Shown piece after piece: positions 1 to 18,000 of a DNA stretch of 39,939 nt (positions are counted from its first letter, which is position 1; each line of letters starts with the position of its first letter). Position numbers: made by a program. Origin of the DNA: Candidatus Zixiibacteriota bacterium (GTDB taxonomy: Bacteria > Zixibacteria > MSB-5A5 > UBA10806 > 4484-95); the NCBI GenBank assembly GCA_029932605.1, contig JAOZPT010000018.1, forward strand, positions 1,790 to 41,728, written 5' to 3'.

Positions 1-3000
1 TCCGTAACATTGGCATAAAAACATTCAAAATCATATAAATCCACACCTCTCTCAACGGAGATAAATGATACCTGAGTAGAATCACTTAATTTCAAATAAA
101 TGGTGATACCGCCAACCTCAAATGTATTATTGCTTAACATTAAAGAAAATGATGTTGAATCACCAGGCAGATTATAAACATAAGGTAAATATAATGTATC
201 GATATCTTGACAAAAAGTAAGGTTAAAAAAAGGAAGGATACTAATCATTAATACTACAACAAAAATTTTCATTTTTCCCCTTATTCTCCACTATAATAAT
301 CCGTTATATATAAAGCAAATACCATGCCTCCTTTCTTTTAACCTCAATAATTTCAGCATGTTGAATTACTATTATATATTTCCTATAATTCCGATTCAAC
401 TCCAATCAAATAATCACCCTTATTATTAATCAAAAATACAAGTTTTTTATTTACGCCACTACAATCATTATCACCTGATCTTTGTTTCCCGCATTCGTTT
501 TCACAAAATCTGCAAAATCAGTGAATTTTTTTTATAAGGCAAGAGAGGCGAAAGCCTCTCTCACCTTAATTTCACGATGAAAATCGCCGCCAATATTCTC
601 TTATTTCAGCAGTGTCATCTTCATCGTTTCAGAGAAGTTACCAGCTGTAACTTTGTAGAAGTATACACCACTGGCTACATTGTTGGCATCCCAGACAATT
701 GAATGATACCCGGCAGACATGTTACCAGCATCAATGGCCTTGACCAGCTGTCCAGCCACGTTGTAAATGGCGATGGACACCTTCGCCTCATCAGGCAAAC
801 CAAAGCTGATAGTTGTCTTTGCGTTGAACGGGTTCGGGAAGTTCTGAGAAACAACGAACTCCTCTGGAATCGGAGCGACCAGCTCGGAACGGGCATCCAA
901 CAGATGACCAATATTATCCGATGCCGACACATCACCAAAGCTCAAAGCACCCTCGGAAAGCACTGGAACAGTGAACAGGGTGTTATTGCCAGGAGCAAAT
1001 GCCTTGGCATCCATGCTGTAAACCAACACGGTCATAACATCACCGTTATCACTGTATTTCAGATCCATGCCCTCAGCAACGGGCACACCAAGCTCAACAC
1101 CAGTATGGTTGATGGATACTAATGCGCCACCAACTGAAGTCTCCGAAGCTATCTTGACTTCCAGATTGTCGCTAACCTCAAGCGGCATAGAAATAGTAGC
1201 AATCACATCAAGCGGCATCATCTTACCGCCAGGAGGATTCTCGTTGAGAACATTAAGCATGAAGATAAGGTCAGCGATTGAAGCCTGGATACCATCACCA
1301 TTCACGTCAGAAGCAACCATCTGACGAAGAGTGAACGGATTAGCATCGGGGTCAATCAGGTGATTGGCAAGCACCACTACGTCACCAACCTCAAACGTAT
1401 AACCATTGAGGTTAAGGTCTCCAATAATAGCGTTGCAATCAATTATCTTGATATTGCCGCATTCGAGATCCAACAACATGGTGCCATACTCGGAGCTATC
1501 CGGAGGATCTGAACAGCCAAGAGAGAACCAAGTGAAATAACCTTCAGCATCTGAAACAACGTTCAGATCGATGGCTTCATACGGATCGTCGCTGTCCATG
1601 AAGCAAATCGGTATGCAGAAGTCAATAGGATACTGTGGCTCTGGATTCAACAAGAATTTAACCCAGAATATTGGTTCTTGGAAGAAACCACAAATATCCG
1701 GAGGATCCTGCTGGTTATTGAGGTCTCTGATGACCACAACGTTAACCCAGCCTTGACCCATGTTAACGGAAGTGTACTCGACTCCGTCCAGAGCATCGCT
1801 GAACATATAGTCGGTAGCTGTCAAGACTGAAGGATCATACTCAATGGTGAACTCGAAACCGCCAAGGCAGAAGCAGTCACCACAAACATCAAGATAAACA
1901 GGCATCCAGTCTTCAAGTCCAGGTAAGAGATACAAATCGGTCATAGATGCAGTCATCTTGCCGATAACAGCAAGCGGGCCATAAGTACCCTCAACCGGGT
2001 CATTCACACCGTCGTTAACGGTTAATACAAGGTCACCGCTGAAGCACTCACCGCAGAAGTCTTCCATTTCGAAGCACCACTCATAGTAGTAAGTAGAAGG
2101 CTCGCCAGTATCACCCTCTCTCTCAACTAATGTTATGGTGCCTGCATTTGCAGAAACATCAAGATCATCACCATCAGCATCGGTAATAACTACATCACCA
2201 CAGAATTCGTTGTAAGTGCATGCAGGAATACCACTAACGGATTCAATTACCGGAGGCTGGTTGGGTGAAAAGTAGGCACACGGGTATTCTATAACCATAC
2301 TGTGAGCATATTGACCCATGGTATCTCCAGCAGCAGGGCCACCCAAAGTTGAACTAACACCATCCTGGAAAACATCACAGATGGTCTGGTCCAGATAAAG
2401 TGTATCATCCAGAGGTGCATTGACACCGAAAATCAAGCACAGGGTTGGTGTGTCAAAATACAACCATGGGTTTGGAGCCCCACCTAGGTCAGCCCAACCG
2501 GCAAATGAACGGCTGTGCCAGCCCGCGGGGTTCGGCGGAGAACCTTCAAGTGAATCCAGGAACGAGGCATCATCCCAATTCACATCAGGATTATATGGGT
2601 CATCGGGATCATGAAATGGGAAAAAGTCCAGCGAACAATCAGAAATAGGAATATCATCAAAGTAAGTATCATTTATACCCAGGGGAAGATGAAGGTCTGC
2701 CGTATAGGCATGTTCAGAACACTGGATATAGACAGGAAGCTGGAAGACCTTTCCGGGACTCACCATAGCAGGTCCAGGGACAGCCGGGTCAAAGAACCAC
2801 ACATAGACGGTGTCATTCTCATTAGCTAAAGCAGCACCGGCTATGAATAAAACTGCCAGCAATGATACCATCAACAATTTTTTGGTCATACTTTACTCCT
2901 TACAAATATTTTAGTTAGGTGTTAAGTTTAACACTCTTACAACGTTTCGAGGAACTCCATTTCCTCTTTTCCCCTCAAATTAATCACACCTTGGTTTTTT

Positions 3001-15000: not shown

Positions 15001-18000
15001 TCGCCATTTGTATTTATATAATTGGGTTCAGGTAACGAGAAATCAGCTATGCCCAGAAGCGATTGTGAGGTCAATCCCTCCTCAGGCCAGCCATCGGCAG
15101 GTTCACTGAAATACACATCCCAATCAAACAAGGGGCCAACGGGCAGGCCACCCAGACGAGCAACTACATATTCATTCTGGGTTGCCAGACAAAAATGAAC
15201 AAAAGCGATATTTTCATCGCATTTCATCCATATCGGAACAGAAATATCAGAATCAATACTCACAACAATTGGTGAACCGTCAGTATTACCAAATGATAAT
15301 GAGTCGATTCCCCCGGGGTCCTGGCCGATCGCCCCCTCAGCCATCACCAGAGCCACTACCAAGATTAAAAACAGCAGTAGCCCTTTCATGTTTACTCCTC
15401 TTATTTAATTAACGTAGCTTTTTTTACCTCTTTGAAGTCACTTGTTTTCATCCTGTAAAAATACACACCAGATGAAACGCTGTTGCCATGATTATCCTCA
15501 CCGTTCCAGATTAGGTAATGGTAACCAGCTGGATATTCAGATGAGGTCAGGTTACGGACAATCCTGCCTGCCATATCAAAAATATCGATACATACAAATG
15601 TTTTATCGGTTATATAAAAGCCGATCTTTGAACTAGTGTTAAAGGGATTTGGATAATTATCATATAAAACGTATGCCTCTGGAATCTCGGAATCGAATTT
15701 GCCACGGCAGGTTAGCATACGGCCATATCTATCAGAAGCCTGTAATTCAGTAAAACTTATACGGCCATCGCCACCAGCAACAACAGAGGTCCTGAAAACT
15801 TGTTGTTGCCCTGGAGATAACCCCTCACCGGAAAGGTCATACATAAGCACGCTAAGTATTTCGCCGTTATCATAAAAAGCCATTTCGAAATGGCTAAGGT
15901 TCTCCGGCGGAGAAAGTTCTAAGCCCTGGTGGTTTAACCTCACAAGCAGACCAGCCACCGATACGCTACTATGCACTGATATGTTAATAACATCTTTATA
16001 ATCTTCGGGTATGGTCACGTCAACGATCTCACCAGATATATCCAGGCCAAGAGGTGGATCGATGTTGCCGTTGATTATATTTAACAGATAGACAAGGTCT
16101 GCCACTGTCCCCGGTATACCATCCATGTTGATATCAGAAGCTTGAACCTGAATTGGATCGAATGGATACTCCTCGGGATTAACCAGATGGTTCACAAAAA
16201 GCACCATGTCAGCGATTTCAAATGGTATACCGTTAAGGTTTATATCACCCACCATAACATCCTCAGGGCCAATCACATCAATATTACCATCAACCAATTC
16301 AGGATGAATGAGGTTATGACCCGACGAATCCGAAAGCGCATTATCAGTAAGATCCTGGGTTAAAAAAATCACAGGCAGCTCTACACCAATTAAATTCTCG
16401 TCTGAGGAAACGGCAAAATTCAGGTTAAATACGGTACCTGTGCCAGGTGCCAAGGGCGGTGAAACAGGTTCGCCTATTAAATCCGCCAAGCCAACGATTC
16501 GGGCTGTCCCTAAACCTGCATCGTCAAAATTGATATTGAAATACTCCCAACTTCCAAGCCTGCCAGTTCGGGTAACACTTGAAAGAGTTAAAGACTCATA
16601 GTCCCAGAAAATAAGAATCTCGAAACCACCCACAATCGATGTTAGTCCATTATTGTTTAACGATACCGGCAACTCTACGCTTGAGCCCGGCAAGGCATTT
16701 ACCGAACCTATAATCAATTCAGTCGGAGTGACATTTAATTCAATATCAAGATTGACAACCCCTCCCTGGCTATCATCCACCGTAAACTGCAGGTCATAAG
16801 TACCAGAACTTCCCTCCGAAGGGACCCATCGAAAATAGTAACGGATATGACCAGGTTCGTTAACAATCTCCTCGAAAGTATAATTCGGGTCAGAAAAATC
16901 TACCGTGAGCGTCATCAGGTCGTTATCTTCATCAGTGCAATCCACATAATATGCAACCTCAAATTGCTCGTTAATATCAAAACTTCCTTCCGACGGCTCA
17001 TTAAACTCAGGTGGATTGTTAGGCGGGAAATACAACTTGCAGTAGATAGCCTCGGGAACCCAGCTGAGCATACCTGACTGGTCACCAAATACCAGAGTCC
17101 CATTCATGGGATTGGCACCCGGGAAGAGATCCATTGTATCACCTAGAACCTCAAAATTATCAGTTGTATGCATAGCAAACTCAGCCACCATTATCCAGGT
17201 ATAATTTGTGTGCAAATACGGGTTAGGCAAACCAAAAAGATCTGCCCAGCCAACTATCGACTGGTTGGAAACACCCTCAATCGGATAGTCAATATCGGGG
17301 TTGAGAAATGAGCAATCATCCCAGTCTGTTAACGGATAATAAAGATTGCCACCATCTCTGGAGGTTATATAATCGTTTTCGGTGCCAAGGGGAATATGTA
17401 CAAAAGCAACACTGTCATCAGTCTTGACCCAGACCGGTATCAAGATATCGCTATCTAAAGCGGCAAGTATAATACTTCCATCAAGGTTGCCAAAAATAAT
17501 CGAATCTGGCTCATCGGGGTCTTGAGCATAAACCATGCTTCCCAAAAAACACAAAAGCAAAACCCCATAAGCAATTTTTCTAGCCATAAACAGCTCTCCC
17601 AATTTAAATATTTTCTCTACAAAGCAAAACTGCAAATCCTTCCGCGAAGCGCTACTAAGGACAATCCATGCAGATTGCCATTTATTAATTTAACCATTAT
17701 ATAAAAAAAATCAAGAACTAAGTTTCCTCCGGGTGAATTTTTTTGATCTTCTGGTCAAGCTCGTTTATGGCTTTTTCAAAACGTTTTTGTGTAATACCTC
17801 TACCCTTTAACACTTCCCTGGAATCTTCAGGAACAATTCTCTCAAGAGAAGCTCCGGGGTTGTTTCTGTTATCTGCATCAGGTCTACGTCTAAGTTCCGT
17901 TTTAGACGAGGATTCTTCCTTAAATAAAGATTTTAACTGAAAAGCCTCAAGCGGACAGTCAGGCCAGTCATGATGCCAGCAGATAAGCAAATCACCCTCA

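Follow-up and report, generated by a model that had tools for sequence, protein, structure and literature searches.

The window, a 39,939-nucleotide stretch of contig JAOZPT010000018.1 (C64) from a 2.5 Mb Zixibacteria genome rated 99.96% complete, encodes several proteins in which cohesin domains, dockerins and T9SS sorting domains are combined in different ways (Table 1). The module under study occurs in two of its genes, as a short form in the 241-aa protein and as a long form in the 482-aa protein; the region delimited by the initial annotation includes the former, while the latter lies outside it. The leftmost gene extends beyond the window and is interrupted by an assembly gap immediately ahead of position 1; its 3′ half lies at C64:1239–1478 with a Por_Secre_tail match of 37.1 bits. 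The type-C dockerin profile matched only dockerins in the PDB.

Table 1. Features of the window in window positions (C64 coordinates refer to the contig)
Product	Position	Strand	Domains	Matches
Small cohesin–T9SS-tail gene, 5′ part	1..272	−	ATG at 272; signal peptide; first half of M-type cohesin; VGG cohesin motif	M-type HMM E 1.3e-6
762-aa surface protein	601..2889	−	Signal peptide; N-type cohesin 2302–2826; Ig region; M-type cohesin 1483–1965; internal type-C dockerin 1225–1428; unassigned beta region 868–1221; T9SS tail 619–840	M-type HMM E 1.4e-35; N-type HMM E 4.6e-15; Por_Secre_tail 41.8 bits; TIGR04183 44.4 bits
241-aa protein (g01408)	3065..3790	−	Signal peptide; M-type cohesin 3266–3712; short-form dockerin 3068–3259	M-type HMM E 4e-26; long-form HMM E 2.6e-18; Dockerin_1 E 0.006 (two stretches)
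622-aa protein	13521..15389	−	N-type cohesin 14799–15323; M-type cohesin 14061–14534; type-C dockerin 13857–14060; C-terminal beta region 13524–13853; no T9SS tail	N-type HMM E 1.8e-32; M-type HMM E 1e-35; no Pfam match at E ≤ 1
744-aa protein	15401..17635	−	N-type cohesin 17000–17524; Ig (Big_9); M-type cohesin 16256–16732; type-C dockerin 16052–16255; beta region 15683–16048; T9SS tail 15416–15655	Pfam Cohesin over cut-off (26.6 bits in the protein scan; 29.7 bits at C64:18180–18509 in the genome-wide search); TIGR04183 32.6 bits
745-aa LVIVD beta-propeller protein	21472..23709	+	T9SS tail	LVIVD E 3e-114; Por_Secre_tail 41.9 bits
482-aa secreted right-handed beta-helix protein	27494..28942	−	Pfam Beta_helix and NosD; C-terminal long-form dockerin 27515–27775; no T9SS tail	Long-form HMM E 4e-46

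The module was searched for genome-wide. A loose expression for the end of the repeat, D[VILA][TVSA][YF].[VIL].[YFH][FLI][KR]G, gave 59 matches in 33 of 15,409 stop-to-stop ORFs of at least 50 aa, and an HMM of the long form retrieved 34 six-frame ORFs at E ≤ 3e-15, with the next match only at E 0.11; both support the module set of 33 proteins counted previously. According to the HMM, 27 of the 34 are long forms and seven are short forms, a larger share than the “about half” (17) previously assigned to the long form. Contig ends cut three of the long forms. In 22 of the 24 complete ones the module is C-terminal, as had been described, and is followed by a short, poorly conserved basic tail of 1–32 residues, whereas in two long proteins, on C19 and C92, it is near the N-terminus, at a distance of 40 and 162 residues.

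The 24 long-form paralogues have a mean column identity of 78% in host proteins that are otherwise unrelated, a pattern that fits a single common ligand. The calcium-ligand positions D9, N11, D20, D52, N54 and D63 show no variation and D13 almost none, while the helices that face the cohesin in dockerins are strongly conserved. The insert that distinguishes the long form is a short hairpin between the two repeats. AF2 with a 64-sequence alignment gave a model for the module of the 482-aa protein with pLDDT 93.2 and pTM 0.82, with helices at 18–28 and 61–71; ligand residues and model together describe an EF-hand-like calcium loop of 12 residues that occurs twice in tandem, with a helix behind each copy. 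When this model was compared with the PDB by Foldseek, the best 32 rows were all dockerins from cohesin–dockerin complexes (best E 1.2e-3, probability up to 1.00, target-normalised TM 0.64–0.76). The long-form profile gave 18 PDB matches at E ≤ 10, all of them dockerin-containing chains (best 4fl4_A, E 0.0012), and no carbohydrate-binding family matched the module in the Pfam protein scan or the PDB profile search. Judged by sequence profile and predicted fold, the module is a type I dockerin and the long form a divergent version of it, which bears out the original reading.

Conversely, the statement that no family library recognises the long form does not hold. Pfam Dockerin_1 (PF00404) gave 30 six-frame places at E ≤ 1, eight of them over the cut-off, although three of these reach it only when summed with their neighbours. 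Four are short forms (best 41.4 bits) and four are long forms, namely C66 at 23.9 bits and C53, C38 and C32 with neighbours. The majority of long forms stay below the cut-off at 13–21 bits, and six match across the full profile in the protein scan (E 2e-4 to 1e-2), in which the short form of L022 scored 38.3 bits. Public pre-computed annotation places PF00404 on only 2 of 54 relatives. Two of the 18 PDB chains matched by the long-form profile bear the title “serine protease”; the Foldseek result identifies them as a double-dockerin module.

Three invariant cysteines had been noted, and C39, C57 and C81 are indeed invariant among the 24 paralogues; the conserved set nevertheless numbers four, counting C3, which is in register in 21 of the 24 and in at least 90% of the 64-sequence alignment. 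They are placed at the N-terminus, in the insert, in loop 2 and at the C-terminus. The label “cysteine-bridged” is an assumption, and disulfide bridging stays hypothetical since no DsbA, DsbB, VKOR or Thioredoxin_4 gene was found in this nearly complete genome. Two disulfides or a metal site are both candidate chemistries. The available text on the Ruminococcus flavefaciens ScaA dockerin describes a non-covalent intramolecular clasp (PMC3821032), which by idea is similar in using end-to-end contacts as module stabiliser; the cysteine positions in the long form suggest a putative covalent or metal-mediated clamp instead.

Two cohesin families, a canonical M-type and a divergent N-type, together provide about 20 domains in the genome, where three or four cohesins had been counted. 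With local HMMs, the M-type was located in nine ORFs (about nine canonical domains) and the N-type in 11 ORFs (12 domains); no protein has more than two confirmed cohesins. Apart from the 744-aa protein of the window, Pfam Cohesin (PF00963) exceeds its cut-off at C64:766–1095 (31.7 bits) and C64:106–240 (27 bits), and a fourth place, on C52, passes only once the scores of its neighbours are added. All 28 PDB matches of the M-type profile are cohesins (best E 6.7e-9). The N-type family has no match to Pfam Cohesin by sequence, yet hhalign aligns it to the M-type over 154 columns (probability 92.9%, E 3.8e-7). The AF2 model of the N-type domain from the 744-aa protein is all-beta (pLDDT 88.1) and gave 59 PDB matches by Foldseek at E ≤ 1e-3, all cohesins among the matches listed (best 4ums, E 1e-6). 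Profile alignment and the predicted nine-stranded beta jelly-roll show the N-type domains to be cohesins.

Por_Secre_tail (PF18962) occurs at 66 places genome-wide. Eight cohesin proteins carry it over the cut-off (C64:2405, C64:1239, C64:17205, C86:1964, C25:2537, C23:4370, C23:3161 and C5:21371), and C64:526 and C5:20363 are slightly below; T9SS-anchored cohesins thus exist as proposed, albeit in a higher number than first given. The T9SS translocon is represented by SprA (TIGR04189) on C85 with 568 bits against a cut-off of 200 bits. In four small proteins an N-type cohesin stands between signal peptide and T9SS tail with nothing else, which is an anchor architecture. Moreover, short-form dockerin genes adjoin cohesin genes on C52, C25 and C64.

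Complete module genes begin with signal-peptide-like N-termini, as expected from the earlier account. A Pfam scan of 29 tagged proteins recovered every enzyme class named there: M14 twice, gingipain-like C25 twice with a further weak match, S8 once and PAD_porph once, the C25 domain occurring with its propeptide and M14 with CarboxypepD_reg. Still, peptidase or deiminase domains over the cut-off are present in only six of the 29 proteins, or seven with the weak C25 match in L009; there is therefore no single substrate theme, and “devoted to protein degradation” was an overstatement. The other tagged proteins carry beta-propellers, beta-helices, BNR, cadherin/Ig or NIDO-like domains, or are without family. 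No GH or CBM family was detected in the 29 tagged proteins (E ≤ 0.01) or in the scanned cohesin proteins, and the defining parts of a cellulosome, a dockerin-borne GH and a tandem-cohesin scaffoldin with a cellulose-binding module, were not seen; the system may resemble a cellulosome in assembly, in function it is not one. One of the C25 proteins, L015, was considered as PorU and rejected (64.5 bits versus a 420-bit cut-off).

The reported absence of a T9SS sorting domain from module proteins was reproduced: none of the 29 has a Por_Secre_tail at E ≤ 0.01, and a comparison by eye showed no overlap between the 66 places in the genome and the module ORFs. LVIVD paralogues bear either a T9SS tail or a dockerin; the one on C52 has a short-form dockerin (Dockerin_1 38.3 bits). 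The genome also contains three secretin clusters with T2SS/T4P-type genes, a possible non-T9SS outer-membrane route for the dockerin proteins.

On balance, we lean towards a reading in which type I dockerins on about 30 secreted proteins plug into T9SS-anchored cohesins. An order of Zixibacteria would have lengthened the type I dockerin by the inter-repeat hairpin, clamped with the four conserved cysteines. The roughly 30 proteins with a C-terminal module and without T9SS tail would be Sec-exported, and at least eight of the cohesin-bearing proteins have a T9SS type A sorting domain at their C-terminus, from which export through the T9SS and attachment to the outer surface are expected for them. 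Calcium-dependent docking of the tagged proteins onto these anchored cohesins would then result in a non-cellulolytic display network of proteins of mixed function. Given dockerin tags on the one side and some 20 cohesins, many of them T9SS-anchored, on the other, display of the tagged proteins on the cell surface via cohesins is probable.

Rather than being nearly genome-specific, as first thought, the long form is matched in each of the order's 23 further genomes (9/9 and 14/14 in its two families); outside the order only 8 of 261 genomes matched, all weakly, and by these searches the long form is confined to one order. The N-type cohesin is found in the same 9/9 and 14/14 genomes, with single weak matches in 21 of 261 genomes outside, and with few copies in genera g7 and g10, which have few long forms. 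It is nearly restricted to the same order, its copy number rising and falling with that of the long form, a co-variation that is inflated because N-type domains sit inside four tagged proteins. Co-occurrence with cohesins at large is not exclusive, since M-type cohesins are phylum-wide (268 of 285 genomes) and g7 keeps its cohesins and small anchors with the long form almost absent. Other parts of the phylum are rich in canonical dockerins, with 141 in G004 and 47 in G072. A further and rather doubtful suggestion is that the long four-cysteine dockerin and the N-type cohesin arose together in the order as a new orthogonal pair beside an ancestral pair of short dockerin and M-type cohesin. If true, two separate docking codes would operate on T9SS-anchored sockets, and a peptidase-rich secretome could be loaded independently of other surface proteins.

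The order-specific long form, set against phylum-wide M-type cohesins, and the cohesin anchors of g7 without long forms would also suit a dockerin fold with a ligand other than cohesin. The long form would then be a calcium-dependent anchor to an envelope component (LPS or another glycan, for example) or to a different class of protein, and the cohesins would serve only the few canonical dockerins of the short-form and type-C kinds; Peer and colleagues reportedly found, in 2009, many non-cellulosomal dockerins without known partner. We consider this improbable, as the order-restricted N-type cohesins expand and contract with the long form, the cohesin-facing helices are highly conserved among the 24 paralogues, and carbohydrate-binding families gave no match to the module. 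The position of N-type domains directly upstream of the long form in C9_24571, C38 (two copies), C32_18309 and C53 could alternatively indicate that the module acts in cis on its neighbour or links tagged proteins together, with no role for T9SS-anchored scaffolds. However, about 20 of the 24 long-form proteins have no N-type domain and the four small tail-bearing N-type proteins look like anchors, which makes such an arrangement quite unlikely.

Lastly, the module could be a C-terminal export or sorting signal of a non-T9SS route, recognised by a machine and perhaps removed. Its C-terminal location in most complete long forms, the basic tail behind it and the mutual exclusion of module and T9SS tail are in line with such a signal; cellulosomal dockerins, however, are likewise C-terminal and are not signals. 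Two copies, moreover, stand close to the start of long proteins, fold and calcium ligands match those of dockerins, and the tail shows little conservation; we regard a signal function as very improbable.

The favoured reading, dockerin-tagged proteins held by anchored cohesins, has parallels in the type I pairs of clostridial cellulosomes, with Acetivibrio thermocellus OlpA and OlpC as single-cohesin anchors (PDB 3ul4, 4dh2 and 1ohz, entries that rank near the top of the sequence and fold comparisons here). Common to both are a dockerin of two calcium-loop and helix repeats, a jelly-roll cohesin, the C-terminal position of the dockerin on secreted enzymes, and small proteins with one cohesin and a surface anchor. 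The Zixibacteria host, in contrast, is diderm, and its anchor is a T9SS sorting domain rather than SLH repeats or sortase; the hairpin insert, the four cysteines and the second, divergent cohesin family set it apart as well, while GH/CBM in the 29 tagged proteins and a scaffoldin with many tandem cohesins in the genome were not seen.

Coupling of cohesin–dockerin assembly to the T9SS had been put forward as new, but the idea was already proposed for Candidatus Stygibacter (Cloacimonadota). The available text of Williams et al. 2021 (PMC8542988) describes a cellulosome-like complex inferred in silico, comprising signal-peptide enzymes with C-terminal dockerins, including S8 and gingipain-like C25 peptidases, and a cohesin protein with a T9SS conserved C-terminal domain for surface attachment; its single 3,755-aa scaffoldin combines tandem cohesins with CBM2/CBM3, and its enzymes include GH18 and GH57. 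As far as that text goes, the two systems share dockerin-tagged S8 and C25 peptidases, a T9SS-tailed cohesin protein and the same superphylum neighbourhood, and differ in that the Zixibacteria genome spreads its cohesins, of two families, over many proteins with one or two each and has a long dockerin with cysteines, with CBM/GH not seen. The Zixibacteria system is a real, lineage-specific version of a known cohesin–dockerin design.

The T9SS cargo of Porphyromonas gingivalis includes gingipains (C25), PPAD and the M14 carboxypeptidase CPG70, which are attached to anionic LPS by their C-terminal domain. C25, PAD_porph and M14 recur here, in a genome with SprA and 66 T9SS tails, but these enzyme classes bear a dockerin instead of the T9SS tail, and their attachment would be indirect, via a T9SS-anchored cohesin.

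An HMM of the long form, i.e. the module with an insert and four conserved cysteines, retrieved 34 six-frame ORFs from the genome (2.53 Mb, 101 contigs, rated 99.96% complete) at E ≤ 3e-15, with the next match only at E 0.11. A loose regular expression for the repeat ends gave 59 matches in 33 of the 15,409 six-frame ORFs. The tagged set described in the initial annotation is real and, in numbers, stronger than stated; several particulars need correction. Twenty-seven of the 34 ORFs are long forms, 24 of them complete and three truncated at the ends of contigs C26, C37 and C55, where some may be halves of a single gene. 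The other seven are short forms lacking the insert (two on C52, one each on C32, C39, C25 and C13, and the 241-aa protein of the window). The window holds a second module gene that the earlier coordinates had missed (see Table). The module ends 1-32 residues from the stop in 22/24 complete long forms, and two long-form modules lie near the N-terminus (residues 40-125 of 554 and 162-247 of 985). Complete module genes start with a signal-peptide-like hydrophobic stretch.

The module is attributed to the type I dockerin family on the basis of fold prediction and sequence comparison, in line with the earlier reading of a divergent dockerin. Contrary to the statement that no library recognizes it, Pfam Dockerin_1 matched 10 of 29 whole tagged proteins at E ≤ 0.01. 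The matches include six long forms, aligned to profile positions 1 to 52-56 of 57 and spanning the insert, and one short form, L022, that scored well over the cut-off (38.3 bits). A six-frame search with the same family found 30 places at E ≤ 1, eight of them over the cut-off, including four long forms. When the long-form profile was compared with the PDB, every one of the 18 chains at E ≤ 10 contained a dockerin (best E 0.0012), among them two chains deposited as "serine protease" that represent a double-dockerin module. The poor AF2 model obtained previously (pLDDT 46) gave way to one with pLDDT 93.2 and pTM 0.82 when an alignment of 64 sequences was supplied (24 paralogues and 40 modules of other Zixibacteria genomes); it features two helices and a small hairpin within the insert. 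In Foldseek, the rows ranked 1 to 32 were all dockerins of solved cohesin-dockerin complexes; the best match reached E 1.2e-3 with probability 1.00 and target TM up to 0.76, and none fell at E ≤ 0.001. Calcium-ligand positions are invariant in both loops. Two features set the long form apart from canonical dockerins: the insert of about 10 residues between the repeats and the four conserved cysteines.

Of these cysteines, C39, C57 and C81 show no variation and C3 very little. As the short forms retain solely the equivalents of C57 and C81, we infer the pairs C57-C81 and C3-C39. A search of the genome for the DSBA, DsbB, VKOR and Thioredoxin_4 families gave no match at E ≤ 0.001 and so did not back the disulfide reading; a metal-binding Cys4 clamp is accordingly a live alternative. 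Despite the lack of such matches, dozens of exported modules of this genome carry conserved cysteines. Cysteine-bearing dockerins also occur in another Zixibacteria family, where canonical C-terminal dockerins include a terminal CxxC. In one such genome, G004, the eight dockerins examined (e.g. loci L197-L204) are C-terminal, have conserved cysteines and follow the form C-GDANGDG ... GDANCDG ... PAPCxxCK. Among the 12 best-ranked of 166 papers on non-cellulosomal dockerins and disulfide bonds, none was listed as describing a bacterial cysteine-clamped dockerin.

The earlier count of only three or four cohesins proved too low: Pfam alone finds five places, and local HMMs extend these to the canonical M-type cohesins listed in the Table, identified by iterative search and HMMs, and to 12 domains of a divergent N-type in 11 ORFs. 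The M-type profile matched cohesins in 28/28 PDB hits. The N-type corresponds to the first ~175 residues of the three large window proteins and has homologues in four small proteins encoded on C5 and C23, which consist of a signal peptide, the N-type domain and a T9SS tail (Por_Secre_tail/TIGR04183) only. Its sequence retrieved no cohesin from the PDB. An alignment of N-type and M-type profiles with hhalign gave 92.9% probability over 154 columns, and the AF2 model of the domain (pLDDT 88.1) returned 59 Foldseek matches at E ≤ 1e-3, with a cohesin in every row listed. On this profile and model evidence, the N-type is a second, divergent cohesin family. Five N-type domains sit directly upstream of the dockerin inside four long-form-tagged proteins. 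In the three large window proteins the order is N-type cohesin, Ig, M-type cohesin, an internal "type-C" dockerin and a beta region, followed in two of the three by a T9SS tail. All eight PDB matches of the type-C profile were dockerins; its hhalign comparison with the long form gave a probability of 14% over 27 columns, the sequences being too short and too few to link the two types directly. The region between type-C dockerin and T9SS tail, considered as a candidate third cohesin, aligned (five sequences) with the M-type at a probability of 10% (E 0.003).

Table. Cohesin genes, tagged genes and neighbouring features, in window positions or as contig coordinates.
Location	Strand	Feature
C64:1-360		M-type cohesin, truncated at contig end
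C64:376-1245		M-type: signal peptide, cohesin, T9SS tail
C64:1227-2079		M-type: signal peptide, cohesin, T9SS tail; split by assembly gap; 5' end = window 1-272
C64: about 1780-1789		Assembly gap (run of N, read as X), directly before window position 1
Window 601-2889	-	762-aa protein, M-type cohesin
Window 3065-3790	-	241-aa protein, M-type cohesin, short-form module
Window 13521-15389	-	622-aa protein, M-type cohesin
Window 15401-17635	-	744-aa protein, M-type cohesin
C86:2-2221		M-type cohesin
C52:42989-43669		M-type cohesin, 227-aa cohesin-like protein (locus L034), M-type HMM E 1.3e-6
C25:2510-3886		M-type cohesin, weak match
Window 27494-28942	-	Second module gene of the window
Window 21472-23709	+	LVIVD propeller with T9SS tail
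C52:43644-45662		LVIVD propeller with short-form dockerin
Window 4556-9855	-	1,191-aa Ser/Thr kinase with TPR repeats and 575-aa GAF-PAS histidine kinase
Window 10099-10620	-	173-aa Cys-rich membrane protein, no family
Window 10729-11988	+	419-aa membrane protein, bactofilin domain
Window 12073-13221	-	382-aa protein, signal-peptide or lipoprotein-like start
Window 37691-38380	-	Y1 transposase domain, IS200-like

The assembly gap leaves the window with the first 272 bases of a small cohesin-T9SS-tail gene. Such genes form tandem arrays of two to four in the relatives G252, G253 and G255 (loci L127, L128, L131 and L139-L141), beside a gene for a ~707-aa protein that begins with a cohesin and in G253 also ends in a canonical dockerin. 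The fragment C64:1-360 at the contig end may be the host's copy of the ~707-aa gene. L034 immediately follows the LVIVD gene with the dockerin tag, and its cohesin is broken by a Cys-rich stretch that contains two CxxC pairs and resembles a zinc ribbon.

The T9SS-anchored cohesins claimed by the initial annotation are present, and in both cohesin families: Por_Secre_tail lies over the cut-off on eight cohesin-bearing proteins and just under it on two. None of the tagged proteins has a T9SS tail. The genome encodes the T9SS translocon SprA. The cohesin proteins are presumably secreted by T9SS and then fixed on the cell surface; the tagged proteins would exit the periplasm by another route and dock on the cohesins in a calcium-dependent manner. 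Three secretin clusters with T2SS/T4P-type genes are found in the genome. More speculatively, the tagged proteins, which have no tail of their own, might be carried out while bound to a tail-bearing cohesin. As to display, two LVIVD propeller paralogues end in different C-terminal tags, one in a T9SS tail and the other in a short-form dockerin (see Table), so that the two tags look interchangeable; comparison of the paralogues suggests an exchange of tags between one display route and the other. L015, a C25 protein with a dockerin tag, was considered as the T9SS sortase PorU and ruled out (64.5 bits versus a cut-off of 420 bits).

The long form is not peculiar to one genome, as a survey of 285 genomes of the phylum, including the host, shows. 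Every other genome of the order has it, 9/9 in the host's own family and 14/14 in its sister family (23 in all), most with at least 18 matches; genus g7 has one weak match per genome and genus g10 two or three. Outside the order, a single weak match was found in each of 8/261 genomes. Among 1.84 billion cluster representatives, 1,914 matched at E ≤ 1e-3, 1,088 at E ≤ 1e-10 and 104 at E ≤ 1e-30, and the 150 matches listed cover essentially the whole module, save one repeat-rich row. The relatives with the module are titled Candidatus Zixiibacteriota, with a few labelled by submitters as "uncultured Ignavibacteria" or "bacterium". Public annotation largely overlooks the long form: nearly all source names read "hypothetical protein", and PF00404 is pre-computed on 2 of 54 relatives. 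Ordinary dockerins abound elsewhere in the phylum (Dockerin_1 at E ≤ 0.01: 141 matches in G004, a genome of 3.6 Mb, and 47 in a further one, G072), and three genomes of the host's order have 20, 13 and 9. With ordinary dockerins so widespread and the long form largely confined to the order, the latter looks like the local variant of a dockerin tag used across the phylum.

The same survey bears on which dockerin would bind which cohesin. M-type cohesins occur in 268/285 genomes, phylum-wide as are canonical dockerins, and their presence or absence is thus uninformative as a guide to the cognate cohesin. N-type cohesins occur in all 9 + 14 genomes of the order with 6 to at least 11 copies, but number only 2-4 in g7 and g10, where long forms are scarce as well, and appear outside the order as single weak matches in 21/261 genomes. 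Genus g7 retains short-form dockerins, small M-type anchors and a 744-like protein. In the host, short-form dockerin genes adjoin cohesin genes on C52, C25 and C64. The distribution weakly suggests that the short form pairs with the M-type and the long form with the N-type; the pattern is weak because relatives are not independent, the counts are lower bounds (at least 11, at least 18), and N-type domains inside tagged proteins add co-variation. A complex prediction for the N-Ig-M part of the 744-aa protein (423 aa, 22-row alignment) with the long form (64 rows), a single pair run without controls, gave ipSAE values of 0.07 and 0.17, both under the mark of 0.32, and counts neither for nor against binding. 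The four-Cys long form and the N-type cohesin restricted to this order are a possible orthogonal pair.

The tagged cargo comprises two M14, two or three C25 and one S8 peptidase, one peptidylarginine deiminase (PAD), an amidotransferase-like protein, FG-GAP, PQQ and LVIVD propellers, BNR, beta-helix, cadherin/Ig and NIDO-like proteins, and several without family; no glycoside hydrolase or CBM was seen among it. Of the earlier interpretation, the dockerin variant and the T9SS-anchored cohesins stand; the focus on protein degradation is too narrow for cargo of such mixed function. Porphyromonas gingivalis shares the enzyme classes C25, PAD and M14 and attaches them directly via T9SS tails, in place of the dockerin tags seen here. 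The textbook case of assembly through cohesins and dockerins is the Gram-positive cellulosome. Fold and sequence place the parts described here in the type I dockerin and cohesin families, but functionally the system is no cellulosome. Its closest precedent is an in-silico proposal for Ca. Stygibacter (Cloacimonadota), which describes signal-peptide enzymes with C-terminal dockerins, including S8 and gingipain-like C25 peptidases, and a cohesin scaffoldin with a T9SS C-terminal domain (PMC8542988); dockerin-tagged S8/C25 enzymes and a T9SS-tailed cohesin are common to both. Our searches found no literature that connects Zixibacteria to dockerins or to type IX secretion, and no Zixibacteria paper on cohesin or T9SS among the 15 best-ranked of 599 matches; Zixibacteria and cellulosome co-occur in one paper, once each.

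A diderm candidate phylum appears to employ the cohesin-dockerin plug and socket, mounted on T9SS anchors, for proteins that are not cellulolytic. Should the binding hold true, gingipain-like, M14, S8 and PAD enzymes would have a second and indirect way to the surface, unlike the direct attachment in Porphyromonas, and many "hypothetical" Zixibacteria proteins would find an explanation (at least 1,088 long-form cluster representatives at E ≤ 1e-10). It would likewise provide an example of docking-code diversification within one phylum, and new orthogonal cohesin-dockerin pairs for protein engineering, possibly redox- or metal-stabilized.

In the window, the two kinases lie between the two cohesin gene groups and may regulate surface genes. 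The bactofilin-domain protein and the Cys-rich membrane protein are encoded between kinase and cohesin genes. The 382-aa protein, without a Pfam match at E ≤ 1, follows directly downstream of the 622-aa cohesin protein, and an IS200-like Y1 transposase domain is encoded further along the window.
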